Assembly: GCA_046331705.1 (NCBI GenBank)
Contig: JAXLQJ010000017.1
Location: 62,001 to 126,000, forward strand
Length of the DNA stretch: 64,000 bases
Reading direction: 5' to 3'
Source of the DNA: a bacterium
Lineage (GTDB): Bacteria > JADJOY01
A model generated the notes under the pieces. That model was given only the letters and a program-made list of their open reading frames with translations, searched no databases and was not told where the DNA came from. Of the stretch, positions 10,416 to 62,447 are shown one piece after another. The translations under genes and the position numbers were made by a program. The stretch's first letter is position 1. Every line of letters begins with the position of its first letter.

Positions 10416-12296
10416 ATGCGCGGCGGGACGCCGGCGTCGAGCAGGGCCCCTTGGCTCGGCATGGCGCTCTTCGCTCTCGGCTACTTCGCGTCGGCCGAGA
10501 TCGGCCACCTGCTCTCGATTCATGGCGACGAGCTCGGACAGTCGTTCGCCACGCTCTGGCCGCCGAGCGGCCTCTACGTCGCCGCGCTGCTGCTCGCCGA
10601 GCGGCGCCACTGGCCCGCGCTGGCGCTGGTCGCGCTGCTCGCCAACTCGGGATCCGACGTTCTCGTCCACGCACAAACGCCGCGATTGAGCCTCGCATTT
10701 TGGTGCGCGAACACCGTCGAGGCCGCCGTCGGCGCGAGCCTGGTGCGACGTTTCTTCGGCGCCCCGTTCATCGAATGGGGCGTGCGGCACGTGCTGGGGT
10801 TCGCCGCGCTCTCGGTGGGACTGGGGGCCGCGGCTGCGGCGCTCCTCGGCGCCACGGCGCTGGTGCGGACGCTCGGCGGCGATCTCGGAACCGCCTTCGC
10901 GGTGTGGTGGTCGAGCGCCGCGATCGGGCAGCTGGTGGTGGCGCCGGCGGTGCTCGCGTTCCACTCCCGCGTGCAAAAGCTCGCCACCACCACGATCCCG
11001 CCGCTGCGCGTCGTGGAGGGCTGTGTGCTCGCGGTGGTGCTGGCGCTCCTGGCGGAGCTCGTCTTCGGCCAGCAGTCGCGCCCCATCGCCTTCGCCGTGT
11101 TTCCGGTGATGATGCTCGCGGCGCTGCGCTTCGAGATCGCCGGAGTCGCCTTCTCCACCACCATCCTCGCGAGCATCTGCATCGTGAACACCGGCGCTGG
11201 GCGCGGGCCGTTCGCCGCGGCCACCGCATCGATCCCGGAGCGCGTGGTGCTCGCCCAGAGCTTGCTCAGCCTGGCGGCCTTCTCGTCGTTGGTGCTGGCC
11301 GCCGCGGTCCGCGAACGGCGCCGCGCCGAGGCCGCTAGCCGCGCCGACGAGGCGCGCTATCGCGACCTGTTCGAGAACATGCGCGAGCTGGTGCAGATCG
11401 TGCGCCGCGATGGCTCGCTGGTGCAGGTCAACCATGCGTGGCAGCGCGTGCTCGGCTACGGCGACGCCGAGCTCGGGCGGCTCGACGTCTTCGACGTGAT
11501 CCATCCGGAGGACCGGGACCACTGTGCCAAGCTGCTCGAGCGCGTGCTCGCGGGCGAGGACGTGGGGCGCATCCAGGCGCGCTTCGTCGCCAAGGACGGG
11601 CGCGTCGTCGAGGTGGACGGCACGAGCCGGCGCCACCTGCACGGCGATCTGGAGGCGCTCAGCCAGGCGGTCTTCCGCGACGTCACCGAGGAGCGCGCCC
11701 GCAGTCGCGAGCTCGAGCGAGCCCAGCAGGACCTCGAGCGCGCCAATCACGAGCTACGGCGGCTGGCGGCGACCGACGCGCTCACCGGCCTCAACAACCG
11801 CGGTGCGTTCGAGGAGCATCTGCCGCGCGAGATCAACCGCGCCTTCCGCTACGCGACCGCGCTGTCGCTGGTGATCCTCGACGTCGACCACTTCAAGCTC
11901 TTCAACGACCGTTTCGGACACTCGGCGGGCGACGACGTGCTTCGCACCGTGGCGCGCATCGTGCGCGCGACTGCACGGGCGACCGACTTCGTCGCGCGTT
12001 ACGGCGGCGAGGAGCTCGTCGCCATCCTGCCTCACACCGACGAGGTGGGGGCGCTGGCACAAGCGGAGCGCTTCCGCGAGGCGGTCGCGGGCTGGGCATG
12101 GACGCTTCGGCCGATCACGGTGAGCGTCGGCGTGGCGACCCTCGCGACCGACCCGATGGAACCCGGGCTGCTCGTGGCGCTCGCGGATCAAGCGCTCTAC
12201 CGCGCCAAGCAAGCGGGGCGAAATCGCGTCGAGAGCGCGGGGCGCGCCTCGCAGCTGGCGAGCCCGTTCAACGCCGCGACGCCCGATCGCCCCTGA
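10416..12296 (+). CDS. MASE1-PAS-GGDEF diguanylate cyclase
   Basis: TLWPPSGL plus multiple TM helices (MASE1); PAS (YRDLFEN...IHPEDR); DALTGLNNR, DVDHFKLFNDRFGH, RATD I-site, GGEEL. Start uncertain (10416 or 10461). Confidence 0.9.
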   Translation: MRGGTPASSRAPWLGMALFALGYFASAEIGHLLSIHGDELGQSFATLWPPSGLYVAALLLAERRHWPALALVALLANSGSDVLVHAQTPRLSLAFWCANTVEAAVGASLVRRFFGAPFIEWGVRHVLGFAALSVGLGAAAAALLGATALVRTLGGDLGTAFAVWWSSAAIGQLVVAPAVLAFHSRVQKLATTTIPPLRVVEGCVLAVVLALLAELVFGQQSRPIAFAVFPVMMLAALRFEIAGVAFSTTILASICIVNTGAGRGPFAAATASIPERVVLAQSLLSLAAFSSLVLAAAVRERRRAEAASRADEARYRDLFENMRELVQIVRRDGSLVQVNHAWQRVLGYGDAELGRLDVFDVIHPEDRDHCAKLLERVLAGEDVGRIQARFVAKDGRVVEVDGTSRRHLHGDLEALSQAVFRDVTEERARSRELERAQQDLERANHELRRLAATDALTGLNNRGAFEEHLPREINRAFRYATALSLVILDVDHFKLFNDRFGHSAGDDVLRTVARIVRATARATDFVARYGGEELVAILPHTDEVGALAQAERFREAVAGWAWTLRPITVSVGVATLATDPMEPGLLVALADQALYRAKQAGRNRVESAGRASQLASPFNAATPDRP

Positions 12297-22281: not shown

Positions 22282-23571
22282 TCACTGCACGACCTGGATC
22301 AGTCGGAAGTACGGCAGGAACATCGAGAGCGCCACGAACAGCACGACGACGCCCATGAAGCCGAGCAAGAGCGGCTCGACCAGCGTGCCCACGACCGCGG
22401 TCTGGTAGTCGACCTCGCGCTGGTGATGGCTCGCCACCGCCGCCATCGCCTCGGGCATGCGCCCCGACTCCTCGCCGACGGCGACCATGTCGAGCACCAG
22501 GCTGGGCAGGAAGCGAAACGGCAGGAAGCTCTCGTGGAGCGTCCGGCCGCGCTCGACGTTGCCGCGGATGTAGCGGAACGCGTCCTGGAACAGGATGTTC
22601 GGGATCGCCTCGCCCACCAGATCGAGGGTCTTGAGCAGCGGCACGCCGGCCTGGAGCAGGATCGACATCATCGTCGAGAACTGCACCGTGTAGATGTTGG
22701 TGAGGATGGGCCCGAAGATGGGCAGGTGCACCTCGATGCGGTGCAGGAGCGGCTTGAACCCGCCGCGCTTGCGCGCCTGCAAGAACACGAGATACGCGAC
22801 CAGCAGCGAGAGCACGATCCACGCCCAAGCATTCGTCACGGCGTTCGAGAAGCCGAACACGATCCGGGTGATCGTGGGCAGGTCGGCGCTGTTCATCTCG
22901 AGCTGATCCTTGAAGACCGGGATCACGAAGACCAGCAGCACCAGCACCACGGCAATGGCGAGGACGAACACGATGAGCGGATAGGTGACCGCCTTCGAGA
23001 GCGTGCGCTTGGTGTCGGACTCGCGATCGCGGTAATTGGCGAGGTAGTCGATCACCTTCACGAGCGAACCCGACTCCTCACCGGTGCGGATCACGCTGAC
23101 GATCATGTTGTTGAACCAGCGCGGGTGCTTGGCGAGCGCCGCCCACAGCTGGATTCCGCGCTCGACGTCGGTCATCACCTCCGTCAGCGAGGCGCGGAAC
23201 TCGGCGCTCTCGCTACGCGTGCTCAGGATCTGAAGCGCCCGCATCAACGGGATGCCCGCGCTCAAGAGCACCGAGAGCTGCCGCAGGAAGACGTTCACCA
23301 CCTCGGGATCGGGCTTGCGCGAGCTGCGCGCGAACGGATTCGACGGTGCGGCGTTGCTGCTCGCGGCACTCGGCGGCGGCGGTGGCGGCGGCGCGGCGGA
23401 GGAAGCGCCGCCGACTCCCGCACCCGGCAGCTCGTCGGCGGTCTTGGCCGCGAGGGTCTGGCGGATCGAGTCGGCAACCGATCCGCTCGCGGCTGCCGGC
23501 GCGGGCGCCGGTGCGGCAGCGGACGACGCCGCCGCCTTGCTGGACTTCGACTGCTTCTTGGTTTCGGCCAT
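22282..23571 (-). CDS. Type II secretion F / PilC family platform protein
   Basis: FLRQLSVLLSAGIPL, GEESGSL, AVTYP, FVIPVF, LPTITR, second GEESG, LVEP, SMFLP; Pro/Ala-rich N-terminal extension. Confidence 0.9.
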   Translation of the reverse strand: MAETKKQSKSSKAAASSAAAPAPAPAAASGSVADSIRQTLAAKTADELPGAGVGGASSAAPPPPPPPSAASSNAAPSNPFARSSRKPDPEVVNVFLRQLSVLLSAGIPLMRALQILSTRSESAEFRASLTEVMTDVERGIQLWAALAKHPRWFNNMIVSVIRTGEESGSLVKVIDYLANYRDRESDTKRTLSKAVTYPLIVFVLAIAVVLVLLVFVIPVFKDQLEMNSADLPTITRIVFGFSNAVTNAWAWIVLSLLVAYLVFLQARKRGGFKPLLHRIEVHLPIFGPILTNIYTVQFSTMMSILLQAGVPLLKTLDLVGEAIPNILFQDAFRYIRGNVERGRTLHESFLPFRFLPSLVLDMVAVGEESGRMPEAMAAVASHHQREVDYQTAVVGTLVEPLLLGFMGVVVLFVALSMFLPYFRLIQVVQ

Positions 23572-23666
23572 TGGGGGGACCCCTTCGAACGAGAGCGGGT
23601 TGGAGGAACTCCCCTCGACCATCGCGCCCAGCGCGCGGAGCGCCCGATCCGCGCGGCAGGCGATCG

Positions 23667-24902
23667 TCAGCCGAGGACGCGCACGTACTCCTCGATCGTC
23701 GTCAGCCCTTCACGGACCTTGGCGAGCCCCGAATCGCGCAGGGTTCGCAGTCCGTCGTCCAGGGCTTGCTTGCGAATCTGCTCTTCGGTGGCGCCCGACA
23801 TGATGAGGCTGCGCACCTTGTTGGTCACGTTGAAGATCTCGAAGATGCCGAGTCGGCCGCGATAGCCCGTGTTGAAGCACGCCTCGCAACCCGCGCCGCG
23901 CACCAGGTTGTAGCCGCTCATGTCCTTCGCCGAGAGGTGGAGCGCCTCGGCGGCGGCCTTCTTGTTGCGGATCGGCTCGGCGCAGTGGCTGCAGACCTTG
24001 CGCACCAACCGCTGCGCCAGCGAGCCCACCAGCGCGTTCGCGATCAGGAAGCGGTTGATGTTGAAGTTCGTGAGCGTGGTCACCGAGCCCACGGCCTCGT
24101 TGGCGTGCAGCGTCGAGAACACCAACATGCCGGTGAGCCCGGCGCGGATGGCGATCTTCGCCGTCTCCTCGTCGCGGATCTCGCCGACCAGGATCACGTT
24201 GGGGTCCTGACGCAAGATGGCGCGCAAGCCGTACACGAAGTCGAACGCGACCTTGTAGTTGACCTCGATCTGGTTCGCCCCGGGGATCACGTACTCGATC
24301 GGATCCTCGATGGTCATCACGTTGAGGCCGGCCTTGTCGATCTTGTTGATGCAGGAATAGAGCGTGGTGGTCTTGCCGCTGCCGACGGGGCCGGTGGCGA
24401 GCACGATCCCGTGCGGCTTGGCGATGAAGCCGTCGACGATCGCGACTTCCTCGGCGGCCATGCCGAGATCCTCGAGCGAGGTGAACAGGCGCCCGCCCTC
24501 GGCGAGCCGGATGCCCATGCGCTCGCCGAAGTTGGTGGGCACCGTCGCGATGCGCATGTCGTACTCGGACGCCTCGGTGGAGAACCGGTAGTGCCCGTCC
24601 TGCGGCAGGCGCCGCTCGGTGATGTCCATGTCCGCGAGGATCTTGATGCGCGAGATGATCTCGCGGCCGGTCGTGTGATCGACGCGCCCCACCTCGTAGA
24701 GGAAGCCATCGACGCGGTAGCGGATGTTGAAGCCGTCGCGTCGGGGCTCGATGTGGATGTCGGTGGCGCGCGAGCCCACCGCCTTCTCGATCAGCGTGGC
24801 GACGGTCTCGACGGCGGAGTTCGTGTTGATGGGCAGCGGCTCACCCGCGAAGCGCAGGTTGGCACCGCGCGAGGCCACCGAGCTGGAAGCGAGCTCCGCC
24901 AT
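23667..24902 (-). CDS. GspE/PilB family assembly ATPase (short, no N-terminal MshEN-like domain)
   Basis: ATDIHIEP, RLPQDG, GPVGSGKTTT, TIEDPIEY, LRQDPNVILVGEIRD, STLH, CxxC...CxxC. Confidence 0.9.
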   Translation of the reverse strand: MAELASSSVASRGANLRFAGEPLPINTNSAVETVATLIEKAVGSRATDIHIEPRRDGFNIRYRVDGFLYEVGRVDHTTGREIISRIKILADMDITERRLPQDGHYRFSTEASEYDMRIATVPTNFGERMGIRLAEGGRLFTSLEDLGMAAEEVAIVDGFIAKPHGIVLATGPVGSGKTTTLYSCINKIDKAGLNVMTIEDPIEYVIPGANQIEVNYKVAFDFVYGLRAILRQDPNVILVGEIRDEETAKIAIRAGLTGMLVFSTLHANEAVGSVTTLTNFNINRFLIANALVGSLAQRLVRKVCSHCAEPIRNKKAAAEALHLSAKDMSGYNLVRGAGCEACFNTGYRGRLGIFEIFNVTNKVRSLIMSGATEEQIRKQALDDGLRTLRDSGLAKVREGLTTIEEYVRVLG

Positions 24903-47388: not shown

Positions 47389-47488
47389 GCGGTGCGAGCC
47401 CACCGGGGCAAATGGTACGATTTTCGGGTTGTGTCGCACGACGCCCGGGGGGGTGCCGACGTGCGGCGCCGGGAGTCGAATCCACCCC

Positions 47489-48298
47489 ATGCCCCAGAGC
47501 GTCCGGGAACTTCTCGAGCTCGAACGTCAGCGTCGAGCCCGCATCGATCGTGCGCTGGGCGGCGTCGCGGAGGCGGTGCGCTCGATCGCGACGGCCAGCG
47601 CGCGGCTCGATCAAACGCTGCGCGATTGGTTCTCGGGCTCACCCGCTGCTGACGTCCCTGCGGCGCCCGCGAGCTCCCGCGCGGGCGCGGGCGAACCAAA
47701 CGCGGACGTGCCGGCGCGCGACGACACCGCCTGGGACGAGGCGCTCCGCAAGCTCGATGAGCTCTCCGAGGAATCGAACACGATGGCCACGCGCTTGCTC
47801 AGCGTCGTGGACATCGCCGATCAGCTCGACCGTCGGCTCGGTGCCGCCCGCGAGATCGCGGAACGCATCGACCTGCTGGCTCTGAATGCCGCGCTCGAGG
47901 CGACCCGATCGGACCCCGCGGCGCGCGGCGCCGCGCGCTCGGCGTCCGAGATTCGCGACCAGGTCGTGCGCTGGATTCGCGCCAGCCAGGAGCTCGGGCC
48001 GCTCGCGAACGAGATCCGCGAGGAGCTGGGACGTGCGGTGCTCGCCGCCGACGCCGCCCAGCGCCGCGCCACCGCGGCGCGCCAGTACGCGGCCACGGTC
48101 GAGCCGCCGCGCAGGGCCGTCGCCGGCGTGGTCCCGCACCCGAGCGCCCGCGGCGAACCCGCGCCATTCGCGTCCGCGCCGTCCGCCGCCAGCCCCGCCG
48201 ACGCGACCGACCTCACGCTCGAGCAGGCGGAGCGGATCACCACTGCGCTGGCGAACCTCGGCAGCCAGCTCGACGAGCTGCTCGGCACGCGTTCCTGA
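47489..48298 (+). CDS. Soluble, degenerate methyl-accepting chemotaxis-like protein
   Basis: IAERIDLLALNAALEATR resembles the MCP hairpin tip; coiled coil; no TM or sensor domain. Confidence 0.7.
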   Translation: MPQSVRELLELERQRRARIDRALGGVAEAVRSIATASARLDQTLRDWFSGSPAADVPAAPASSRAGAGEPNADVPARDDTAWDEALRKLDELSEESNTMATRLLSVVDIADQLDRRLGAAREIAERIDLLALNAALEATRSDPAARGAARSASEIRDQVVRWIRASQELGPLANEIREELGRAVLAADAAQRRATAARQYAATVEPPRRAVAGVVPHPSARGEPAPFASAPSAASPADATDLTLEQAERITTALANLGSQLDELLGTRS

Positions 48299-48337
48299 CG
48301 GGAGGCGCCTCTCGATGGCTGCTCGGGAGCACGCGCG

Positions 48338-50284
48338 ATGAGCTCGGCGCGGGTGAACGCGCGCCTCATGGGCACGTATCTGGCCGAGATGGCCGAGCAC
48401 GTCCTCACCTGCAATCGCGAGCTGGCGGCCATCGAGCGCGGCAGCGCGAGCGCCGACCACGGCGCGCGCTTCGACACGCTGTGCCGCACCACGCACAGCC
48501 TCAAGGGCGCGTCCCAGGCGGTGCAGCTCGGCACCATCGAGACCGCGTGCCATCTGTTCGAGGAGGCGCTGCTCGCGGCGCGCGGCACGAGCGGCGCGGA
48601 TCGTGGCGGCCTGTTCCATCTCCTCTACGACACCGTCGATGCGCTGGCCGACGCCCATTCCCGACTGACGCAAGGCGCCAGCCTCACCGGCGCTCCCATC
48701 GAGCGAATCATCACCCGGCTCGCCCAGATGACTCGCGCGCAGCGCCTCGCCGCCGATGCCGCGACGGAGCCCGAGCCAGCGCCCCGCCCAGCGGCGCGCA
48801 CTCCGCCGCCCGCTGCACGCTCGACTCAGGCCGCCGAAGACTCGCCGCGAGCACCGGCGCGCATCCAGGAGGAGCCGCCGCAGCCCGCGCTCGGAGTCTC
48901 GTTTCGCGAGCTCTGCGATGGCTTCGAGAAGATGGCCCACGACCTGGCGGACGCGACGGGCAAGGCGCTGAGCCTGGAGATCGAAGGCGGCGAGCAACGC
49001 CTCGATCCGACGCTCGCGAGCGCGCTCAAGGACCCGTTGCGCCACCTGATCCGCAACGCGATCGACCATGGCACCGAGGCCCCTGCCGAGCGGCGCCACG
49101 CCGGCAAGCCCTCGCCGGCGCGAATCGTCACCGCATGCCAGGTCGACGACACACAGATCACCGTGTCCGTGATGGACGACGGCCGCGGCATCGATACCGC
49201 CGCCGTGCAAGCAGCGGCGCAGCGCCTCGGCCTGCCCGCGCCGACGAGCACCGACGAGCTGCTCCGGCTCCTCTGCCGTCCCGGGTTCACGACCGCGGCG
49301 CGCGTGAGCACGCTCTCGGGACGCGGCACCGGCCTGGACGCGGTGCGCTCCCGGCTGGACGAGCTCGACGGCGCGCTCACGCTTTCCCATCGGCCAGGCC
49401 TGGGCACGCGATTCGAGATTCGCGTGCCGCATCCCGGGCTTCGTCAGGGCGTGCTGCGCGTGATCGCGGGTGGGACGGCGTACGCGCTGCCGATTCGCGC
49501 GGTCGAGTCCGTGATCCCGCTGCGCGCATCCGAGCTGCGGACGCTGGGTGGCCGCGCGTATCGCCTGGTGGGTGAGCGCTCACTGCCGGTGGCGGTGCTC
49601 GACCTGCTGGTGGCGCCAGGCACCCGCGTGAGCGACGTCCCCGTGACGGCGCGGCCGCGCGGGATCGTGGTCGAGAGCGAGGCGAGCCAGGCCGTGGTGG
49701 CGGTCGACTCCGTCGGCGCGCTCGAGCGCGTCGTCATCGCCAAGAGCGACGCTGCGCTCGAGCCTCGCAGCCCACGCGTCGGCAGCTTCGTCGACGGCGA
49801 GGGCGTCACCGTGACGGTGCTCGACCCCGCCGAGGTCGTGGCACGCGCTCGCCACGCCACCTGGTCCGAGGTCCGCGACGCCGCGAGCAGTGCTCCCGGC
49901 GACGAGACGGACGCGCCGCGCATCCTGGTCGCCGCGTCGGGCACGTGGACGCGCGAGCTGCTGCGCCGGGTGCTGGAACGCGCCGCCTACCGGGTCTCGC
50001 TGGCGACGACCACCTCCGAGGCCGCGCGCATCGTCGCGGAAGGCGGCGCATCGCTGCTGGTCGCCGAGGGTCGGCACCCGGACGGACCCACCATCGACTG
50101 GGACGCGGTGCGCCGGGCGAACGGCGGGAGCGAATCGCCGATGCCCGTGGTGATCCTGGCCCAGCAATCGGCGGCCGAGCCCGACGAGTCGAGCGCGTGG
50201 CTCTCGACCGAGACCTTCCGTCCCTGCGACCTCACCGAAACCGTGAAGCGGTTGCTCGGCCGCTTCCCAGCGCGAGCCGCATGA
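48338..50284 (+). CDS. cheA: CheA/WspE-like hybrid kinase (Hpt-HATPase-CheW-pseudo-REC)
   Basis: HSLKG; HLIRNAIDHG, DDGRGID, PGFTT, SGRGTGLD; CheW-like domain; REC lacking canonical acidic residues. Confidence 0.85.
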   Translation: MSSARVNARLMGTYLAEMAEHVLTCNRELAAIERGSASADHGARFDTLCRTTHSLKGASQAVQLGTIETACHLFEEALLAARGTSGADRGGLFHLLYDTVDALADAHSRLTQGASLTGAPIERIITRLAQMTRAQRLAADAATEPEPAPRPAARTPPPAARSTQAAEDSPRAPARIQEEPPQPALGVSFRELCDGFEKMAHDLADATGKALSLEIEGGEQRLDPTLASALKDPLRHLIRNAIDHGTEAPAERRHAGKPSPARIVTACQVDDTQITVSVMDDGRGIDTAAVQAAAQRLGLPAPTSTDELLRLLCRPGFTTAARVSTLSGRGTGLDAVRSRLDELDGALTLSHRPGLGTRFEIRVPHPGLRQGVLRVIAGGTAYALPIRAVESVIPLRASELRTLGGRAYRLVGERSLPVAVLDLLVAPGTRVSDVPVTARPRGIVVESEASQAVVAVDSVGALERVVIAKSDAALEPRSPRVGSFVDGEGVTVTVLDPAEVVARARHATWSEVRDAASSAPGDETDAPRILVAASGTWTRELLRRVLERAAYRVSLATTTSEAARIVAEGGASLLVAEGRHPDGPTIDWDAVRRANGGSESPMPVVILAQQSAAEPDESSAWLSTETFRPCDLTETVKRLLGRFPARAA

Positions 50285-50414
50285 GCCCGCGACGACGATC
50301 CATGCACCTGCCGCGCGCGCACGCGCGGGTGGCAAAGGGTTGCTCGACGATCCCCGTTTCGTTCGATAATGCGCGACCCCCGTCGCCCCCGGGGATCCGA
50401 AACCGGAGGAGTGG

Positions 50415-52241
50415 ATGACCCGTGTCCTGATCGCCGAAGACAGCCCCACGCAGGCCGAGCAGCTTCGGATGATCCTCGAGCACGAGGGCTTCCAGGTCGA
50501 CCACGCGGCCGACGGCGAGCGCGCGTGGGCTCTGTTCAGCGCGTCCCGCGAGCCCTACGACATGGTGCTCAGCGACGTGCTGATGCCCGGCATGACCGGT
50601 TACGAGCTGTGCCGCGCCATCAAGGAGCGCGGCGCGAATCCCTCGACCCCGGTCATCCTCCTGACCGTGCTGCACGACGCCGGCGACATCATCCGCGGCC
50701 TCGAATGCGGCGCCGACAACTTCATCACCAAACCGTACGAGGCCACGTACCTGGTCCGGCGGATTCGTCACATCCTGACCAGCCGCGGCGTCCGCGAGGA
50801 ATCGAGCCACAAGGTCGGCATCGATCTGGTCTTCATGGGCCGGCGCTTCACGATCTCCGCCCACAAGGAACAGATCCTCGACTTCCTGGTGTCCACCTTC
50901 GAGGAGTTCGTGCGCGCCAAGCAGCGCGAGCTCGAGACGCGGGTCGGTGAGGAGAAGCGACGGCTGATCGAGCTCGAGGCGCTCACCGTCCAGCTCGAGA
51001 CCGCCAACGCGCGCCTGGAACGCCTGGCGAACCTCGACCCGCTCACCGAGCTGCTCAACCGACGCGGGCTGGAGCGGGTGCTGGCGAGCGAGGTCAATCG
51101 CGCCCAGCGCACCGGCGCGCCGCTGGTCGCGGCGCTGCTCGACTGCGACGACTTCAAGCGCGTCAACGATCGGCTCGGCCACGCGGTGGGCGACGTGGTG
51201 CTCACCGAGGTGTCGAAGCGCCTGGAAGCGAGCCTGCGTCCGTCCGATCACGTCGCCCGTGTCGGTGGCGACGAGTTTCTGATCCTGCTGCCCGAGACCC
51301 GCTGGGCGGAGGCGCTCAAGGTCGCGGAGCGCGTGCGGCTCGCGGTCTCGGAGGACCCGCTGGTGGTCTTCTCCGAGCCGATCCGCGTCACCGCGAGCCT
51401 GGGAGTCGCGCGCCTCCCGTACGAGATCTGCTCGATCGAGGAAGTGCTCACCCTCACCCGGCTCGCGATCCGCGACAGCAAGCTCGCCGGCAAGAACCGC
51501 GTGTCGACCGCCGAGGTCGCGCGGGGCGGCGGCAACGGCGGCCATTGCGCCGACGTCCGCGAGCTCTTGCGGCAGGAGGACTGTTTCCGCGCCGTCTCGC
51601 AACCGATCTTCCACCTCGGCGACGGAAGCCTGGCCGGCTACGAGTTCCTGACGCGCGGCCCCACGGGTCCGTTCGAGATGCCCGGCGACTTCTTCCGCGT
51701 CTGCCTCGAGAGCAACATCCTCACGCTCGTCGATCTGCGTTGCCTCAAGACCTGCATCGCGGCCACCCGCGATCTCGATCGCAAGCTGCGCTTCCACGTG
51801 AATCTGTTCCCGTCGACGCTGCTCGACACCCCGCCCGAGCGCTTGCTCACGCTCTTCCCCACCACCGCCGATCGCTACTCGTTCTGCGTCGAGATCAGCG
51901 AGCAGCAGTTCATCGCCGACCCCGCCGTGCTGCGCGCCCAGGTGCAGCAGTTCCGCAGCGCGGGCATCAAGGTCGCGATGGACGACGTGGGCTTCGGACG
52001 CAGCTCCCTCGAAGCGCTGCTGCTGCTCGAGCCCGACGTGGTGAAGATCGACCCGAAGTACGTGACGGGCATCGCTCACGACACCGGCAAGGAGCGCTCG
52101 CTGCGGCGCCTCGTCAAAGCGGTGGACGCCCTGGGAGCCGAGTTGGTCGCCGAAGGCATCGAGCACGAGCAGGATCTGATGCTGCTGCGCGACGTCGGCA
52201 TCCCGTACGGCCAGGGCTTTCTCTGGGGTCGGCCGAGCTGA
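50415..52241 (+). CDS. REC-GGDEF-EAL c-di-GMP enzyme
   Basis: GGAGGAG SD; AEDS, SDVLMP, TKP; DPLTELLNR, RPSD, GGDEF; EFL, VNL, DDVGFG, KID, EGIE, QGF. Confidence 0.93.
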   Translation: MTRVLIAEDSPTQAEQLRMILEHEGFQVDHAADGERAWALFSASREPYDMVLSDVLMPGMTGYELCRAIKERGANPSTPVILLTVLHDAGDIIRGLECGADNFITKPYEATYLVRRIRHILTSRGVREESSHKVGIDLVFMGRRFTISAHKEQILDFLVSTFEEFVRAKQRELETRVGEEKRRLIELEALTVQLETANARLERLANLDPLTELLNRRGLERVLASEVNRAQRTGAPLVAALLDCDDFKRVNDRLGHAVGDVVLTEVSKRLEASLRPSDHVARVGGDEFLILLPETRWAEALKVAERVRLAVSEDPLVVFSEPIRVTASLGVARLPYEICSIEEVLTLTRLAIRDSKLAGKNRVSTAEVARGGGNGGHCADVRELLRQEDCFRAVSQPIFHLGDGSLAGYEFLTRGPTGPFEMPGDFFRVCLESNILTLVDLRCLKTCIAATRDLDRKLRFHVNLFPSTLLDTPPERLLTLFPTTADRYSFCVEISEQQFIADPAVLRAQVQQFRSAGIKVAMDDVGFGRSSLEALLLLEPDVVKIDPKYVTGIAHDTGKERSLRRLVKAVDALGAELVAEGIEHEQDLMLLRDVGIPYGQGFLWGRPS

Positions 52242-54590: not shown

Positions 54591-56103
<1,513 letters not shown>

Positions 56104-56107
<4 letters not shown>

Positions 56108-57312
56108 CCGCTGCGGCAGACGGCGACCGGCCCGTTCGCATCGCGGTTCTCGGGCTCGGGGCCGAGCTCGCGACGCGACTCGAACGCGATCTCGCCGCGG
56201 CGAACCAGGCCGCCGAGATCGTGAGGATCGACGAGACCGGAACGAGCGAGCTCTCGCGGTTCGGCGAGCTCGACCTGGTCGTCGTCGACCCCAAGAGCGG
56301 CAGTCACCCGACCGTCGAGCTCCTGACGCAGCTACGTGCCGCCGTCCCCGGCGCCGGCTTGATCGTGCTCACGCGTCACGCCGACACCGACGACCTCTAT
56401 CAGGTGGTGCGGCTGGGCGGGATCGAGCGCTACTGGATCCTGCCCTGGTCGCACGTCCACGCCGCCGAGCTGGCGCAGCTGGTCGCCGAGCGCAGGCTCG
56501 CCAACGAACGCGCCGCGCGTGAGCGCCGGCTGGCCGCGGAGTGTCGGGAGCTCGCCGCCGAGAACCGGCTGCTGCGCAGCGGCGCGAGCGGTGCCCGTCC
56601 GTGGAGCTGGTTTCCTCAGCTCAGCGAGGCGATGCAATCGTGCCTTCGCGCCGCCCGCGCGCTCGCCGCCGGCACCGAGGACGTGTGCATCGTCGGCGAG
56701 CCCGGCTCGGGGCGAGCCACCCTGGCGCTCGCGCTGCACACCCACGGCCCACGCGGCGCGGAGCCGTTCGTGCGCCTACCGGCGGCGCTGCTGCGGCGCG
56801 GGACGCTCGACGCAGGCGCCGCGGCACCAACCGAGACCGGCGAGCTGCACGGCGCGCTGCGCGTCGCCTCGAAGTGGGAAGCGGCGCGCGGCGGCACGCT
56901 CTTCGTCGCCGACATCGAGGATCTCGACGACGTGGCCCAGGCGGTGCTCGCGGGACTCGTCACCGGCGACCTGGCGGGCGGCCGCGAGACGCCTCGCCTC
57001 GTGGTGAGCGCCTCGGCGCATCCCCGCGAGCTCGGCGCCGAGGGCTCACTCCACCCGCGGCTCGCCGAGCGCCTCGCCCCCCACGTGATCGCCGTGCCGT
57101 CGCTCCGCGAGCGCGCGGCCGACCTCGCGCCGCTCGCGACCCAGCTCCTCGAGGAGTGGTCGGAGCGCGTGAAGCGCCCCGCCCCGGTGCTCGATCACCA
57201 GGCGCTGGCGGCGCTCGCGCGCCGCTCGTTCGAAGGCAACGTGCGCGAGCTGCGCGAGCTCCTCGAGCACGCCGCGTTCCTGAGCGGCAGCGGTCGCTTG
57301 GCCATCCACTGA
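56104..57312 (+). CDS. Degenerate (pseudo) sigma-54 enhancer-binding protein, no HTH
   Basis: REC-like region; Walker A GEPGSGRA (K>R); no GAFTGA; Walker B FVADIEDL; PSLRER, GNVREL; ends before an HTH. Confidence 0.78.
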
Positions 57313-57595: not shown

Positions 57596-58075
57596 ATGCG
57601 AGCCAGCGTCGCCGCCCCCCGGAATCCGACGAGCGCACGATCGTCGCGGAACGCGCTGGCGCTCGTGCTCGCCGTCGCCGGCGCCGGCGGGTGCTCCGCC
57701 CGCGCGCTCGAGCCGCGACTCGCCGACCACGCGTTCGCCAGCGCCTGGGCCAGCCCGCTGGAGGGACCTGCCGTACGCGACACGCGCTTCGGCGTCGACA
57801 CCGAGGGCGTGACGCTCTGGCTCGCGTTCGCCGACGTCCTCGACACCCACACCGTTCGAGTCCGCTGGCGCGATCCCTCGGGACGCATCCAGCGCGACAG
57901 CGGACCCATCGCGATCAATCGCGAAGGCGGATACCGTCCGCGCGCCGGCTTCAGCGCGCGCCTGCCGGTGCGCGACGCACCGGCCTCGTTGTGGCCAGGC
58001 GAGTGGATCGCGGAGGTCTCGTGGGACGAGCGACCGCTCCTCGCCCGCACCTTCGTGCTGACGGAGGCTCGATGA
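57596..58075 (+). CDS. Lipoprotein with Ig-like beta domain
   Basis: ALALVLAVAGAGG-C lipobox; VRWRDPSG, WPGEWIAEV. Start uncertain. Confidence 0.65.
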   Translation: MRASVAAPRNPTSARSSRNALALVLAVAGAGGCSARALEPRLADHAFASAWASPLEGPAVRDTRFGVDTEGVTLWLAFADVLDTHTVRVRWRDPSGRIQRDSGPIAINREGGYRPRAGFSARLPVRDAPASLWPGEWIAEVSWDERPLLARTFVLTEAR

Positions 58076-59049
58076 ATCTCGCCGCCCCCTCGCCAGCGCC
58101 GCTCAGCGCCGCCGCCTCGTTCGTCCACGGCTACCCGTTCGAGGCGTGGTTGGCCGATCGCGGCCGCGCCACGCCGGCCGAGGCCGCGGCGCTGGTCGCG
58201 AGCCTGGCGGCGCAGCTCGAGGCCGCCCGCGCGGTGGGCGTGACGCCCGGGCTGGCGGTGCCGCGGCTGGTTCGCATCGACGCCACGGGCGCCCCGACCC
58301 TCGACGTCTGGGCCGCGACTCGACAGCAGACCCATCCCGAGGATGCGAGCGCCGCGCGGATGAGGTTCGGCCCGCCACCTGGCGAGACGCTCGACGAGCG
58401 CTCGGACGTCTACGTGCTCGGCGTGGTGCTCTACCACCTGCTCACCGGGCGCTTCCCGTGCACGGGCTCGAATCCGGTGGAGCTGGCGCTCGCGCACCGT
58501 CACCACGAGGTCGAAGCGCCCTCACGCATCGTGCCGGGACTGCCGGAGGCGCTCGACGCGCTCACGCTGAGCTGCCTCGCGAAGGACCCCAGCGCCCGTC
58601 CCACGTCGCTCGCCCTGCTCGCCGACAAGCTCACCGGCAAGCTGCCCGAGCCGCTTCGCGAGCCGCCGCCGCCGGCGAATCCCGCTTCGCCGCTGCCGAA
58701 CGTGCGCAGCGCCACGCTTCCGAGCGCCGCTCTGCCACCCGCGCTCGCGGCGCCCGCACCCAGTCGGCGCGGCGGCGCCTGGCCGATCGCGCTCGCGGTG
58801 CTCGCGGCCGCCGCCGGCGGATGGCAGCTCGCGTCCCGATCGACGGCGGGCCGAGACGTCACGATCGCGGCGCCGCTGGCGACCCCCGCGGTCCCCGCAG
58901 CGCCGATGCCGCGCATCGCCGCCGAGCCCACCGCCTCGGCGCCAACGGCGTCGCCCGCAGCGGCGGCCCCCGAGCCCGCGACCCGCGCGGCGACCGCTGC
59001 GCCGGTGACGGCGCCCCCGACGGAGCCCCCGACGCGGCCCACGCCGTAG
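58072..59049 (+). CDS. C-lobe-only Ser/Thr pseudokinase + TM + Pro-rich linker (5' part of gene split by in-frame TAG)
   Basis: GGAGG SD, ATGA overlap; DERSDVYVLGVVLYHLLTGRFP, CLAKDPSARP; no N-lobe, HRD or DFG; TM WPIALAVLAAAAGGW. Confidence 0.75.
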   Translation: MNLAAPSPAPLSAAASFVHGYPFEAWLADRGRATPAEAAALVASLAAQLEAARAVGVTPGLAVPRLVRIDATGAPTLDVWAATRQQTHPEDASAARMRFGPPPGETLDERSDVYVLGVVLYHLLTGRFPCTGSNPVELALAHRHHEVEAPSRIVPGLPEALDALTLSCLAKDPSARPTSLALLADKLTGKLPEPLREPPPPANPASPLPNVRSATLPSAALPPALAAPAPSRRGGAWPIALAVLAAAAGGWQLASRSTAGRDVTIAAPLATPAVPAAPMPRIAAEPTASAPTASPAAAAPEPATRAATAAPVTAPPTEPPTRPTP

Positions 59050-59178: not shown

Positions 59179-59733
59179 GTGCCCGCCGCGCACGGCGATC
59201 ACGAGGCGGAGGTGATGCGATTGCTCGCCGAGGGCGACGCGCTGCTGCGACAGAAGAAGTATCTCGGCGGCAGCGAGCCCGGCGCGCTCGATCGCTATCG
59301 CGCGGTGCTCGAGCTCGCGCCCCAGCACGCCGAGGCGGGCGCCAAGGTCCACCTCATCCGGACGACGTACCTCACCCTCGCCCGCGAGCGTCGCGACGGC
59401 GGCGATTTCGAGGCCGCGCACCGCTACCTGAGCGGCCTCGATCGCGCGTTCCCGGGAGACGCGGAGATCACCCGCGAGCTGCTGGCCGTCGACGCGGCGC
59501 GGGCCGACGCGAGCCGCACCGGCGAGCTCACGATCGAGGTGCGCCCGTGGGGCAACGTGTTCGTGGACGGGAAGTTCGTGGATCAGACGCCGATGCCGCC
59601 GCTCGCCCTGGGCGCCGGTGCCCACAAGATCGAGGTCGAGGGCGAGCGCGGCCGTCGCAAGAGCGTCGACGTGACCGTCCACGGCGGCGAGCACCGACGT
59701 GTCGCGATCGATCTGGAGAGCGGTGATGGCTGA
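59179..59733 (+). CDS. TPR-like + PEGA domain (3' part, same frame as 58072-59049)
   Basis: ALDRYRAVLELAP..AEA; GELTIEVRPWGNVFVDG...TP...L..GAHKIEV PEGA motif; frame continuous across the TAG at 59047. Confidence 0.65.
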   Translation: MPAAHGDHEAEVMRLLAEGDALLRQKKYLGGSEPGALDRYRAVLELAPQHAEAGAKVHLIRTTYLTLARERRDGGDFEAAHRYLSGLDRAFPGDAEITRELLAVDAARADASRTGELTIEVRPWGNVFVDGKFVDQTPMPPLALGAGAHKIEVEGERGRRKSVDVTVHGGEHRRVAIDLESGDG

Positions 59734-60709
59734 CACGTCCGCACGAGCACGCCGCGGGCGATGGCTTCTCGTCGCGACCCTCGCGCTGGCGCCGTTCGCG
59801 CTCGCCGCGACCGCCCGCGCCGTCCCCGTGGCGATCGACGATCCCGAGATCGTCGCGGGCATGGACGCGCTCGGCGCCGGCGACGGCGAGCGCGCGCGGA
59901 CCATCCTGGAACGCGTCGCGCCGCGCCTCACCGCCGAGTGCAGCGCGCTACGCGAGAGCCTGGACGGCGACGATGCGCGACTCGTGAGCGCGTGCCACGG
60001 CGCCGCGAGCGCCTGGATCCACCTCGGTCTCGCGCGCGGGCTCGGCAGCGACGGCGCGCTCGCGCACCAGGCTTTCACGCGTGGTCTCGCGCTCGAGCCG
60101 GCGGCGCTGCCGCGCGCAGCGCTCACTCCCCCCAAGCTGCGCAAGCTCTTCGAGGCCGCGCGTCAGGCGGCGCTCGGCCGCGAGCAGGCGGCGGACCCCG
60201 GCGGCATCGCCGGGATCGAGCATCACCCACCGCTCGTCGCCACCCGCGGCCAGCCGCTCCCGCTCGACGTGCGCGTCCACGGCGCGTGGACGAAGGGCGG
60301 TTCGATCGACGTCGTCTACGTCGTCGCGGGATTCGACCAACCGCCGGTGCGCGCCCGGCTTCGCCCCGACGGCGCGCTCGCCAGCACGGAGATCCCCGCG
60401 GGCGTGCTGCTCGCGAGTCGCGTTCTTCACTACCGCTTCGACGCCGTCGATTCCGAGGGACGCGTGCACCGCAGCCGCTGGTACCCGGTGTACGTCGTCG
60501 AATCGCTCGCCGACGTCGAGCGAGGCATTCGGGACCGGCTCGCCGACGAGATCGATGGGCCCGCGCTGGCGTCGATCGACCAGCTGCGCGTCGCCAGCGA
60601 GCTCGCTTCCGCTACGGCCCTCCCCGATGGCGTGAGTCCCGTCGCGCGCCGCCCGGAGTCGCCGGATCGCAGCGTCGCCGGCGAGGTCGCCGCCGCGATC
60701 TTCCGCTGA
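59726..60709 (+). CDS. Secreted TPR-like + Ig-like hypothetical protein
   Basis: Signal peptide WLLVATLALAPFALAATARA; helical repeat ...ALALEP...PPKLRKLFEAAR; IEHHPP...LHYRFDAVD beta domain. Confidence 0.7.
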   Translation: MADTSARARRGRWLLVATLALAPFALAATARAVPVAIDDPEIVAGMDALGAGDGERARTILERVAPRLTAECSALRESLDGDDARLVSACHGAASAWIHLGLARGLGSDGALAHQAFTRGLALEPAALPRAALTPPKLRKLFEAARQAALGREQAADPGGIAGIEHHPPLVATRGQPLPLDVRVHGAWTKGGSIDVVYVVAGFDQPPVRARLRPDGALASTEIPAGVLLASRVLHYRFDAVDSEGRVHRSRWYPVYVVESLADVERGIRDRLADEIDGPALASIDQLRVASELASATALPDGVSPVARRPESPDRSVAGEVAAAIFR

Positions 60710-60716
60710 TCCGGGG

Positions 60717-62447
60717 CTACGGCCAGGGCCCGGACTTGGCGCCGTCGCTGTCGAGGGTGAGCGGCGGATCCTCGGAGGCCGGCGGACGCACGCCTGCGGC
60801 GCTGATCGTGTACTTGTCGCAGAGCCCGTCGTCGTCCGTGTCGGTGACCGTGATCGTGTACCAGTAGTCGCTACCGTCCAGCGCGACGCCGAGGTCGGGA
60901 AGCTGCGTGCCGGAGTCACTGTAGGTCTTGGATCCCGGGCAATTGCCCGAGCCGTCGTCGTACGAGAACGAGCCTCCCGAGAAGAGACGCTCGAGGCCGC
61001 TGGCGATGGCTTCGACGTTCCGCCGCGCCTGCGCGCGTGCGTCTGCGATCGGCAACCCCACCGGCGATCCCGGCAAGACGTCGCCATACCCGAGGCGAAT
61101 CAAGAGGGGCCGCAGAAACACCCGCCAGCCCATGCCCGCGGAACCCACCGCCAGCAGCGTCAGCGCGAGCCACCAGGCCCAGCTGCTGGAGCGCGACGCA
61201 CGTCCGCGCCCCGCGCCCGAACGATCCGAGGCGCTCGAGTCCCCGTCCTCGAACGGAAGCGGCGACGGCGGCGTGAGGTGGTTCGGCGCGATTCGCTGCG
61301 GCGGCGCTCCCGCGTGCGAAGCGCTCTCGGGTGGCGGCACGAACGGCGTGCGCTGCTCGAAGAACCGCGACTTGCCCCGCAGATCGCTGGCGATCTGGCG
61401 GGCGTCCGCGTACCGATCGTCCCGATCCTTCGCGAGCGCCTTGAGGATCACGCGCTCGATGCGCTCGGGCAGGTCGGGGCGGTGAGCACGCGGCGGGTCC
61501 GGCTGCTCGTTCACGTGCATGAGCGCCGTCTCGAGCGGCGTCGCTCCCTGGAACGGCACGTCGCCGGTGAACATCTGGTAGAGGACGACGCCGAACGAGT
61601 AGAGATCGGCGCGGTGGTCGAGCGGGACGCCACGCTTCGGGTTCGCTTGCTCCGGCGAGATGTAGACCGGCGTGCCGACCATCTGCCCGCTGGCGCTGAG
61701 CTGGGTGGTGTCGATCGCCTTGGCGAGACCGAAATCGAGGATCTTGACGACCCAGCGGGACTCGGGAGCGTCGGGGTCGAGCAACACCGAGCCGAAGCGC
61801 GTCGCGGGATCGACCAGAAAGATGTTGTGCGGCTTGACGTCGCGATGGATGACACCGCTCGCGTGGGCGTACGCGAGCCCTTGGGCCACCTGGCAGGCGA
61901 CGTCGATGCCATCGGCGATCGAGAGCGGACCGTGCACCTGGATCTGGGTCTTGAGGTCGGTCCCCTCCAGGAACTCCATCGACAGGTAGAACACGTCGCC
62001 CACGTTTCCGAGGTCGAAGACCTTCAGGATGTTCGGGTGCGACAGACGTCGTGCGACGCGGGTCTCGTGCTTGAAGCGCTCGACGATGGTCTCGTCGGCG
62101 GGGATCAGGCTCGGGTGGATGATCTTGAGCGCGACGGTCTCGTCCAGGTCGCGATCGTGGGCGCGGTACACGACCCCCATGCCGCCGCGGCCGATCTTCT
62201 CGACGATGTCGTAGCGCCCCGCCACCAAGGCCCCGGGCCGAAAGAGCGAGGCCCCGAAGTCGGCGCCTGCTTCGGTGGGATACGTGGCCCCCGAACCGGA
62301 CCCCGACCCGGCCGCCGCCGCCGCAGCGGCCGCCGGGTCGCGCGTCGTCACCGCGTTGCCCGCCGCCACCGGCGCGAGCGCCATGCCGCAGCACGTGCAG
62401 ACGGCGGCAGCGCCATCGAGCGCGGTATGACAGCGGGGACAATCCAT
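60717..62447 (-). CDS. Membrane Ser/Thr protein kinase with N-terminal zinc ribbon and C-terminal type IV pilin-like domain
   Basis: CPRC...CTCC; GRGGMGVVY, VALK, HRDVKPHN, DFG, GTPVYISPEQ, DLYSFG; TM WAWWLALTLLAVG; C-terminal ADARAQARRNVEAIASGLERLF...YTIT...YTISAAG...LTLDSDGAK. Confidence 0.92.
   Translation of the reverse strand: MDCPRCHTALDGAAAVCTCCGMALAPVAAGNAVTTRDPAAAAAAAAGSGSGSGATYPTEAGADFGASLFRPGALVAGRYDIVEKIGRGGMGVVYRAHDRDLDETVALKIIHPSLIPADETIVERFKHETRVARRLSHPNILKVFDLGNVGDVFYLSMEFLEGTDLKTQIQVHGPLSIADGIDVACQVAQGLAYAHASGVIHRDVKPHNIFLVDPATRFGSVLLDPDAPESRWVVKILDFGLAKAIDTTQLSASGQMVGTPVYISPEQANPKRGVPLDHRADLYSFGVVLYQMFTGDVPFQGATPLETALMHVNEQPDPPRAHRPDLPERIERVILKALAKDRDDRYADARQIASDLRGKSRFFEQRTPFVPPPESASHAGAPPQRIAPNHLTPPSPLPFEDGDSSASDRSGAGRGRASRSSSWAWWLALTLLAVGSAGMGWRVFLRPLLIRLGYGDVLPGSPVGLPIADARAQARRNVEAIASGLERLFSGGSFSYDDGSGNCPGSKTYSDSGTQLPDLGVALDGSDYWYTITVTDTDDDGLCDKYTISAAGVRPPASEDPPLTLDSDGAKSGPWP

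Follow-up and report, generated by a model that had tools for sequence, protein, structure and literature searches.

A receptor-type Ser/Thr kinase with a type IV pilin head as its periplasmic domain in an uncultured sludge and wastewater lineage

What does a bacterial receptor kinase read when the domain that it exposes to the periplasm is the head of a type IV pilin? This question is raised by a gene at 60717..62447 on the minus strand of a 64,000-nt stretch of contig JAXLQJ010000017.1 (assembly GCA_046331705.1, GTDB lineage JADJOY01); the whole stretch is referred to as the window, and gene coordinates below are window positions. The open reading frame (ORF) encodes 576 amino acids in DNA of about 72% G+C, and its translation joins a receptor-type Hanks Ser/Thr kinase to a C-terminal pilin head, an architecture present in 6/6 genomes of the phylum. 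An earlier note on this DNA had proposed a kinase with a pilin-like external domain and had taken the arrangement to be undescribed. According to the analysis presented here there is very little doubt that the gene product is a bitopic Hanks Ser/Thr kinase carrying a periplasmic pilin-head paralog, homologous from mature residue 29 onward, for which a single fusion origin is enough. Among the receptor Ser/Thr kinases of bacteria it stands out by a putative sensor domain of a new type, and the role of this domain is weighed below among several explanations of different probability.

The external domain comprises the last 109 residues (468-576; 60720..61046, minus strand) and consists of an alpha1-C helix followed by a four-strand beta-meander; the sequence strings quoted in the earlier note for a tail of about 110 residues, its two Cys residues, and the DTDDDG motif are all present in the translation. 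A search of the own genome with this tail returned, besides the kinase itself, two short frames on other contigs, 47% and 45% identical, which encode canonical prepilins of 149 and 150 residues (P0010 and P0011) with a leader ending in Gly or Ala and followed by FTLVELLVV. When the whole kinase was compared by BLASTP, identity was 47% with P0010 (E 6e-30) and 45% with P0011 (E 1e-26), and the alignments spanned kinase residues 471-575 and the pilins from residue 46 or 47 to the C-terminus. Comparison by hhalign of the TM-to-end (TM, transmembrane) segments of 6 kinases with 7 full-length pilins gave a probability of 99.9% (E 7.5e-37) and paired kinase residues 467-576 with pilin residues 43-150, where pilin residue 43, residue 29 of the mature protein, lies approximately at the expected border between the membrane-embedded alpha1-N and the pilin head. 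Judged by these alignments the kinase tail is a true homolog, namely a paralog, of the pilin heads of its own lineage, and the proposed resemblance was well founded.

The more specific likeness to ComP stood in part: it exists, and it lies below the Pfam threshold, since the ComP_DUS family (PF16732) matched the kinase tail with 15.1-15.6 bits (E 0.03-0.043) and the gathering threshold of 27.3 was not reached. The free pilins P0010 and P0011 scored 23.7 and 25.2 bits, just under the same value, and among 19 head-only sequences 9 matched at E <= 0.1, the best at 2.9e-5. By these scores ComP_DUS is the nearest Pfam family, and neither membership nor DNA binding is claimed. Sequence searches against the PDB with the tail alone (best E 0.23) and with a head-only profile (best E 0.037, an unrelated protein) returned nothing significant. 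A mixed profile of kinase tails and full pilins matched PDB pilins at E 8.2e-10 and weaker, and these matches are uninformative on the kinase because they are driven by alpha1-N of the free pilins.

The prepilin part of a pilin is missing from the kinase, as had been noticed from the letters alone. Pfam detected no N_methyl motif (PF07963) in it, while the free paralogs P0010 and P0011 reached 27.8 and 28.3 bits (cut-off 21.2), and the [G/A]/FTLVELLVV motif is present in 10/10 free paralogs from six genomes. The sole hydrophobic segment of the protein is WAWWLALTLLAVGSAGMGWRVFL, residues 423-445 (61113..61181, minus strand), with the hydropathy window at 427-445, and it is without Glu; hydropathy, the structure model, and the Arg-rich stretch before it point to a single N-in/C-out TM helix, and about 420 cytoplasmic residues, kinase included, stand before it. 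The pilin topology, N-terminus in and head out, is kept. In the hhalign comparison the TM helix lay outside the aligned region and had no homology to pilin alpha1-N; pilin homology begins only at mature residue 29, in agreement with the proposal that the kinase TM segment stands in the place of alpha1-N. Two candidate identities were rejected: a processed pilin, by the absence of the cleavage motif from the Pfam results, and a TM helix that is a degenerate alpha1-N, by the absence of any hhalign profile signal. Because the leader, the Gly-1/Phe1/Glu5 site, and alpha1-N are absent, the kinase cannot be cleaved, membrane-extracted, or built into a filament, and in the same three features it differs from type IV pilins of the ComP/PilE-like class. 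In such pilins the TM part and alpha1-C form one helix, whereas in the kinase they are predicted to be separated by a Pro/Gly-rich juxtamembrane connector, RPLLIRLGYGDVLPGSPVGLPI (residues 446-467; 61047..61112, minus strand), which was delimited by conservation and modelling and whose 22 residues include invariant columns in the kinase alignment.

To check the pilin fold, the 125 C-terminal residues were modelled with AlphaFold2 on an alignment of 20 sequences (kinase tails and pilins), and the model was submitted to Foldseek. The model (mean pLDDT 86.4, pTM 0.80) consists of a 24-residue helix and four strands, and in the Foldseek comparison with the PDB ranks 1-8 were all type IV pilins, the best being P. 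aeruginosa PilE 4noa (E 8.7e-3, probability 1.00, TM 0.52/0.59), so no match reached E <= 0.001. The solved pilins matched include also those of Shewanella oneidensis (4d40) and Thermus (TTHA1221, 4bhr) and Neisseria PilV (5v23). In the ESM Atlas, with its own model and language-model features, the nearest clusters were ComP_DUS-type and other type IV pilins (feature score 0.90, TM 0.63-0.69). The head is therefore predicted by these models to take a pilin fold with alpha1-C packed on an antiparallel sheet, as the earlier note had anticipated. A second model, of residues 415-576 (mean pLDDT 73.9), contained a helix at 423-451, a non-helical part at 452-466 (pLDDT about 60), and the alpha1-C helix at 467-490; owing to this break, whose confidence is low, one continuous alpha1 of pilin type is not predicted.

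Inside the cell the protein has the parts of a working enzyme. The catalytic domain (residues 79-352; 61392..62213, minus strand) matched Pfam Pkinase PF00069 with E 1.7e-48 and 165.8 bits against a cut-off of 31.7, and the five motifs GRGGMG (position 86), VALK (105), HRDVKPHN (201), DFG (238), and SPE (264) were all located in the translation, which bears out the claim of intact catalytic motifs followed by one TM segment. As far as can be read from the sequence the catalytic residues are complete and the enzyme looks competent. Between the kinase domain and the membrane lies a Pro/Ser/Arg-rich cytoplasmic linker (residues 353-422; 61182..61391, minus strand), which is weakly conserved, with 34-69% identity among orthologs. 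The gene ends with a stop codon at 60717-60719 (minus strand).

A kinase gene and a pilin gene might have been merged by mis-assembly, frameshift, or ORF over-call, or the product might really be an assembling pilin. High-GC DNA does yield long spurious ORFs, and there are many in the window; furthermore the relative P0017 is pilin-like behind a long, possibly mis-called N-terminal extension. The fusion is nevertheless not an assembly or frameshift artefact, because the frame is continuous and the same domain order occurs in 6/6 independent assemblies; codon usage is real-gene-like along the whole kinase gene (GC3 0.89), and every segment is under purifying selection. Near-identical DNA (at least half of the sampled words) was found in 14 sequencing runs of 10 studies, all activated sludge, wastewater, or digester metagenomes, one of the runs possibly being the source of the assembly. 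An assembling pilin is opposed by the absence of the prepilin motif and of alpha1-N homology and by the about 420 residues before the TM helix. Taken together, this explanation is extremely improbable.

The fusion has a narrow distribution. In an exhaustive HMMER search with the tail (1.84 billion representative proteins, E <= 0.001) 26 matches were obtained: one kinase cluster (P0007), P0017, 12 short proteins with a single matching stretch, and 12 long proteins with multiple stretches. Among the short proteins, of 98-173 residues, a clear G/FTLVE-type start is present in P0012, P0013, P0014, P0016, and P0023, and a related, atypical prepilin start in P0021, while P0019, P0020, P0025, and P0028 have an apparently incomplete N-terminus. 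The remaining two, P0015 (160 aa) and P0018 (173 aa), are anchored by a hydrophobic N-terminus that shows no G/F...E motif and no N_methyl match; they share with the kinase the head subfamily and the absence of a prepilin site, but they carry no kinase domain. The long matches (P0022, P0024, P0026, P0027, P0029-P0036; E 1.4e-9 to 9.3e-4) were taken to be similar through repeats or acidic loops and entered neither the alignments nor the tree; P0026, the only one that was read, is a tandem-repeat protein with no visible kinase.

A word-based search found seven kinase orthologs with tail identities of 67-100%, and a head-only profile search for longer fused proteins found six among 7,999 scored candidates, all of the same kinase family, which is weak evidence of absence of other fusions. 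Six of 41 sampled GTDB genomes matched, namely the genome of the window and all 5 others of its family, and 35 sampled genomes from 35 other families gave no match. The phylum consists of these six genomes, in two genera, each with one fusion and one or two free pilins of the subfamily. In a pattern scan for the kinase head over 185,579 species genomes only five sister genomes were returned.

The maximum-likelihood tree of 29 head sequences, unrooted and with many weak inner branches, placed the six kinase heads on one side of a single branch (support 96/87) with P0015 as sister. A long stem (0.55 after 0.30) leads to the kinase heads, and the pilins of the same lineage group elsewhere. This tree does not speak against the fusion having arisen once, and it does not allow the donor pilin to be named. 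As a side observation, P0015 and P0018 may represent an anchored intermediate that gave rise to the kinase fusion; P0015 is encoded on a 32-kb contig, and in a pattern scan of genomes for P0015 185 stretches matched and 0 were confirmed. Another observation concerns the metagenomic protein P0017 (692 aa), in which a complete pilin module of the same subfamily, with FTLIELLVV preceded by Arg and not Gly and with a weak N_methyl match, stands at the C-terminus. The roughly 560 residues before this module include several hydrophobic segments, and P0017 may be either another kind of non-cleavable pilin fusion or the product of an ORF that was called too long.

Having been fused, the head was kept under constraint. 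Nei-Gojobori dN/dS values for seven ortholog pairs, of which the comparison between segments alone is meaningful because dS is unreliable at about 90% GC3, were 0.085-0.34 for the head, 0.05-0.31 for the kinase domain, 0.24-0.77 for the linker, 0.26-0.66 for the TM helix, and 0.016-0.27 for juxtamembrane residues 447-470 (one pair not computable). These values suggest that head and connector are constrained like the catalytic domain, the connector at least as strongly as the head in most pairs, and they argue for a functional head and not a relic. Over 6 kinases and 10 pilins 18 residues are invariant, and both Cys residues as well as D536 and D540 are among them. The Cys pair C503...C543 (60819..60941, minus strand), conserved in all 16 lineage sequences, brackets the beta-sheet region and presumably forms a periplasmic disulfide; directly before C543 lies the DTDDDG loop (residues 536-541; 60825..60842, minus strand) of DxDxDG type.

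On this shared frame the kinase heads have changed in a manner of their own. There are 13 residues invariant in the kinases and never found in the pilins of the lineage (the column of residue 470 was left out of this count as a translation artefact), for example Asp527, which is Tyr in 10/10 pilins; two small insertions are specific to kinase heads; and kinase heads carry a net charge of -7 to -12, as against 0 to -7, mostly -2, for those of the pilins. From this divergence comes an explanation according to which the head is a co-opted ligand sensor, a compact disulfide-stabilised periplasmic module that touches neither pilin nor pilus and binds Ca2+ or another cation through its acidic loop, or a polysaccharide, or DNA. 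The far more acidic surface, the clade-specific residues and insertions, and the long stem branch would suit such a module. DxDxDG-type loops bind Ca2+, and here the loop before the second Cys is conserved, with a weak EF-hand match in Pfam (E 0.028) for one member of the subfamily as the sole computed hint; the nearest Pfam family is named for a DNA-binding pilin, though all its matches to the kinase stay below threshold; and the gene is not linked to pilus genes. On the other side, no result points to a ligand, the acidic loop is not a kinase-specific gain because D536 and D540 occur in free pilins also, and the head falls short of the ComP_DUS threshold. A ligand sensor is the main rival of the preferred reading and is considered clearly less likely than not.

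The preferred reading connects the kinase with the pilus itself. As a pilin mimic, the head would be displayed on the periplasmic side of the inner membrane, alongside which unassembled pilin heads are also expected, and would engage whatever recognises such heads, be it other pilins pooled in the membrane, the fibre base, or periplasmic portions of the assembly machine. Its occupancy would shift the oligomeric or conformational state of the receptor, the conserved connector and TM helix would relay this shift, and the relayed state would set autophosphorylation and substrate phosphorylation by the kinase, so that Ser/Thr phosphorylation would mirror the state of pilus or pilin. The earlier note had suggested in the same vein that the kinase may sample the inner-membrane pilin pool or the PilC platform and turn pilus state into phosphorylation, and this is one among two or more readings still in play. 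Possible targets, named by way of speculation only, are proteins encoded in the conserved neighbourhood, the sigma54 activators and other signalling proteins. The origin of the domain, its placement, its conservation, and the precedent of kinases that monitor the pilin pool speak indirectly for this mechanism, to which a probability slightly short of even is assigned. A narrower version, in which the kinase is a pilin decoy docking where pilin heads dock, in the membrane pool or on the periplasmic side of the assembly machine, and pilus extension or retraction alters this engagement and is read as phosphorylation, is offered tentatively and with less confidence.

The precedent comes from two histidine kinase systems. 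PilS reportedly contacts the pilin within the membrane, as the title of a 2016 paper by Kilmury and Burrows has it. In P. aeruginosa, where pilin is autoregulated through PilS-PilR, the membrane kinase PilS interacts directly with PilA (PMC6058289). In Caulobacter crescentus the PilA reservoir activates PleC-PleD, and the signal is a 17-residue PilA TM peptide sensed by the histidine kinase (PMC7196804). By analogy the pilin-head kinase may work like PilS in sensing pilin, and the two are alike in that sigma54 activators adjoin both the free pilin genes and the pilin-head kinase. They differ in that PilS belongs to the histidine kinases and spans the membrane six times (six TM segments), while the pilin-head kinase is a Ser/Thr kinase with one TM segment and without the membrane segment of pilin; no Pfam match to HisKA or HATPase_c was found in it, and it is not a PilS-type member. 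The difference from Caulobacter is that PleC senses a peptide of PilA, whereas here the kinase itself contains the pilin head.

Several points weigh against the pilin-mimic mechanism. No result shows that the head binds anything; the complex prediction of connector plus head with a free pilin head scored 0.00 twice, and being without controls it speaks neither for nor against binding. PilS and PleC read the TM or N-terminal segment of pilin, which is precisely what the kinase lacks. No pilus gene adjoins the kinase gene, and the pilin loci are on other contigs. The long stem, Asp527 in place of Tyr, the insertions, and the acidic surface fit a new ligand equally well. The fold model is not independent of the sequence homology because its alignment contains pilins, and to this are added the absence of Foldseek matches at E <= 0.001 and the restricted reading of dN/dS mentioned above. 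Finally, conservation of the gene and of its synteny may partly reflect shared ancestry, because all six genomes belong to one family.

The layout of the protein has its closest counterpart in the PASTA kinases PknB, PrkC, and Stk1, which are built in the same order of cytoplasmic kinase, linker, one TM segment, and extracytoplasmic sensor. PASTA domains also occur in penicillin-binding proteins, and the logic of a sensor domain borrowed from a component of envelope machinery is shared by both kinds of kinase. The best NCBIfam match of the pilin-head kinase was PknB_PASTA_kin (NF033483), with 326.3 bits over residues 72-441, and the cut-off of 450 was not reached; the match ends before the external domain, and no PASTA match was found in the kinase by Pfam. 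The difference lies outside the membrane, where PASTA repeats stand in those kinases and a pilin head stands here.

The genomic neighbourhood provides material for one more explanation. The kinase gene looks monocistronic, is divergent from the alanine racemase gene (alr), and is convergent with a plus-strand cluster which encodes a histidine kinase, an NtrC-type sigma54 activator, a receiver-less sigma54-activator-like protein, a small lipoprotein-like ORF, a membrane protein with the C-lobe only of a kinase, a TPR protein, and an unknown exported protein. All of the orthologous loci examined (4/4) keep this order, also in the second genus, whose kinase shows 62% identity. Conserved neighbours of the kinase gene include the ORFs at 57596-58075, 59179-59733, and 59699-60709. 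Within the cluster, the sigma54-activator-like AAA+ protein at 56104-57312 (plus strand) has no receiver domain and no HTH_8 match and is also conserved at the orthologous loci; its gene shares 4 bases with that of the complete NtrC-type activator at 54650-56107, which immediately precedes it. The membrane protein at 58108-59049 (plus strand) matches the kinase profile in its C-lobe only (174-260 of 263), with 27.8 bits against 31.7, has a Pro/Ala-rich tail, is likely a pseudokinase, and lies beside the pilin-head kinase in 4/4 loci. In the window the upstream unknown gene and the kinase gene are only 7 bases apart (60709 and 60717), and in one orthologous locus (L021 of genome G001, 5876-7061) about 1.2 kb lie between the ends of the two matches, a gap that an insertion or an additional small gene may account for.

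With such partners at hand, the head might be a non-sensing module that serves dimerisation, stability, or localisation, for example by holding the kinase where pilins accumulate, and the regulatory signal would then come from the cytoplasm through the zinc ribbon, the linker, or the products of the neighbouring cluster. Receptor Hanks kinases are activated by dimerisation, and the conserved neighbours (histidine kinase, sigma54 activators, pseudokinase, TPR protein) could give inputs. The N-terminal candidate for such an input, a cytoplasmic CxxC...CxxC zinc-ribbon-like motif read from the sequence, CPRCHTALDGAAAVCTCCG (residues 3-21; 62385..62441, minus strand), is kept in 6/6 orthologs, which all share its M[DE]CP start, and the Pfam DZR match to it is weak (E 0.47). 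Against a passive role it must be said that purifying selection on the head matches that on the catalytic domain, beyond what is usual for a spacer, and that the clade-specific invariant surface changes suggest a specific interaction. This explanation is considered improbable, though clearly less so than an artefact.

Pilus genes, with the free paralogs among them, lie elsewhere in the same genome. The gene of P0010 lies directly downstream of a HAMP histidine kinase gene, with an NtrC-type sigma54 response regulator further upstream, an arrangement that by its gene content is pilS/pilR/pilA-like. Between the pilS-like and pilR-like genes of this locus (L017, G000:C4) there is a 448-aa ORF at 10822-12168 (minus strand) with a signal-peptide-like start and no Pfam match, situated upstream of P0010. 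The other free paralog, on contig C11, is accompanied by two more pilin genes, an A24 prepilin peptidase, a sigma54 response regulator, two large N_methyl proteins, and a PilX_N protein, and a secretin gene lies about 20 kb away on the same contig. In the whole genome there are 25 T2SSE and 3 secretin matches. In the window itself one of these 25, a T2SSE ATPase (411 aa, E 3e-113), adjoins a T2SSF platform protein (446 aa, E 3.6e-56) at 22282-24902 (minus strand), 36 kb from the kinase and with no pilin or secretin neighbour in a partial gene list. The window also carries a Che-like cluster at 47429-52241 (plus strand), composed of a protein with a methyl-accepting chemotaxis protein (MCP) signalling domain, a CheA-like Hpt-HATPase-CheW kinase, and a response regulator-GGDEF-EAL fusion.

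As for expression, sigma54-type promoters were sought in the DNA preceding the kinase gene, alr, and the free pilin genes; only sites with 2-3 mismatches turned up, and sites with <=2 mismatches occur in 179 of 2000 random 380-nt segments of the genome. Six RNA runs contain small shares of the gene (0.05-0.19), and contigs of four metatranscriptome runs from three studies were aligned to it, the parts of the gene left uncovered in these runs carrying no meaning. Contigs with zero mismatches cover most of the head region at 60819-61061 (X15) and 60824-61053 (X16), in two runs of two studies, and parts of the kinase region at 61295-61541 (X17) and 61787-61948 (X18); one contig with one mismatch covers 61611-61817 (X15). 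Nine of the 14 aligned RNA pieces are 32-43-nt matches with loose ends, which are probably conserved kinase motifs of other organisms, and no RNA contig from the four runs bridges the kinase and head regions. These contigs are a weak hint at transcription of the kinase gene, and DNA carry-over is possible.

Whether the architecture is new can be answered provisionally. No description of a Ser/Thr kinase with a pilin head was found in the full-text literature searched, most subscription journals lying outside its coverage, and the public name of one ortholog is simply 'MAG: protein kinase [Deltaproteobacteria bacterium]', so that the earlier opinion on its novelty has not met a contrary record and the status of undescribed remains provisional.

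In summary, the pilin-head kinase, which is restricted to six species in a single uncultured lineage from sludge and wastewater, suggests an undescribed link between pilus biology and phosphorylation signalling. The way in which bacteria sense the state of their type IV pili, that is the number of subunits in the membrane, extension, retraction, and load, is an open question of surface sensing, and if the decoy reading were true, mimicry of the subunit head would constitute a new principle by which pilus state or surface contact is sensed, as compared with the recognition of a TM segment by PilS and PleC. With its 109 residues, a confident model, and close free paralogs, the head would be straightforward to study by binding and structural work despite the uncultured host. 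Few extracytoplasmic inputs of bacterial receptor Ser/Thr kinases are known, and the known repertoire of these kinases would be broadened by both outcomes: either a subunit look-alike reports on the pilus machine, or pilin heads can be recycled as general periplasmic sensor modules.

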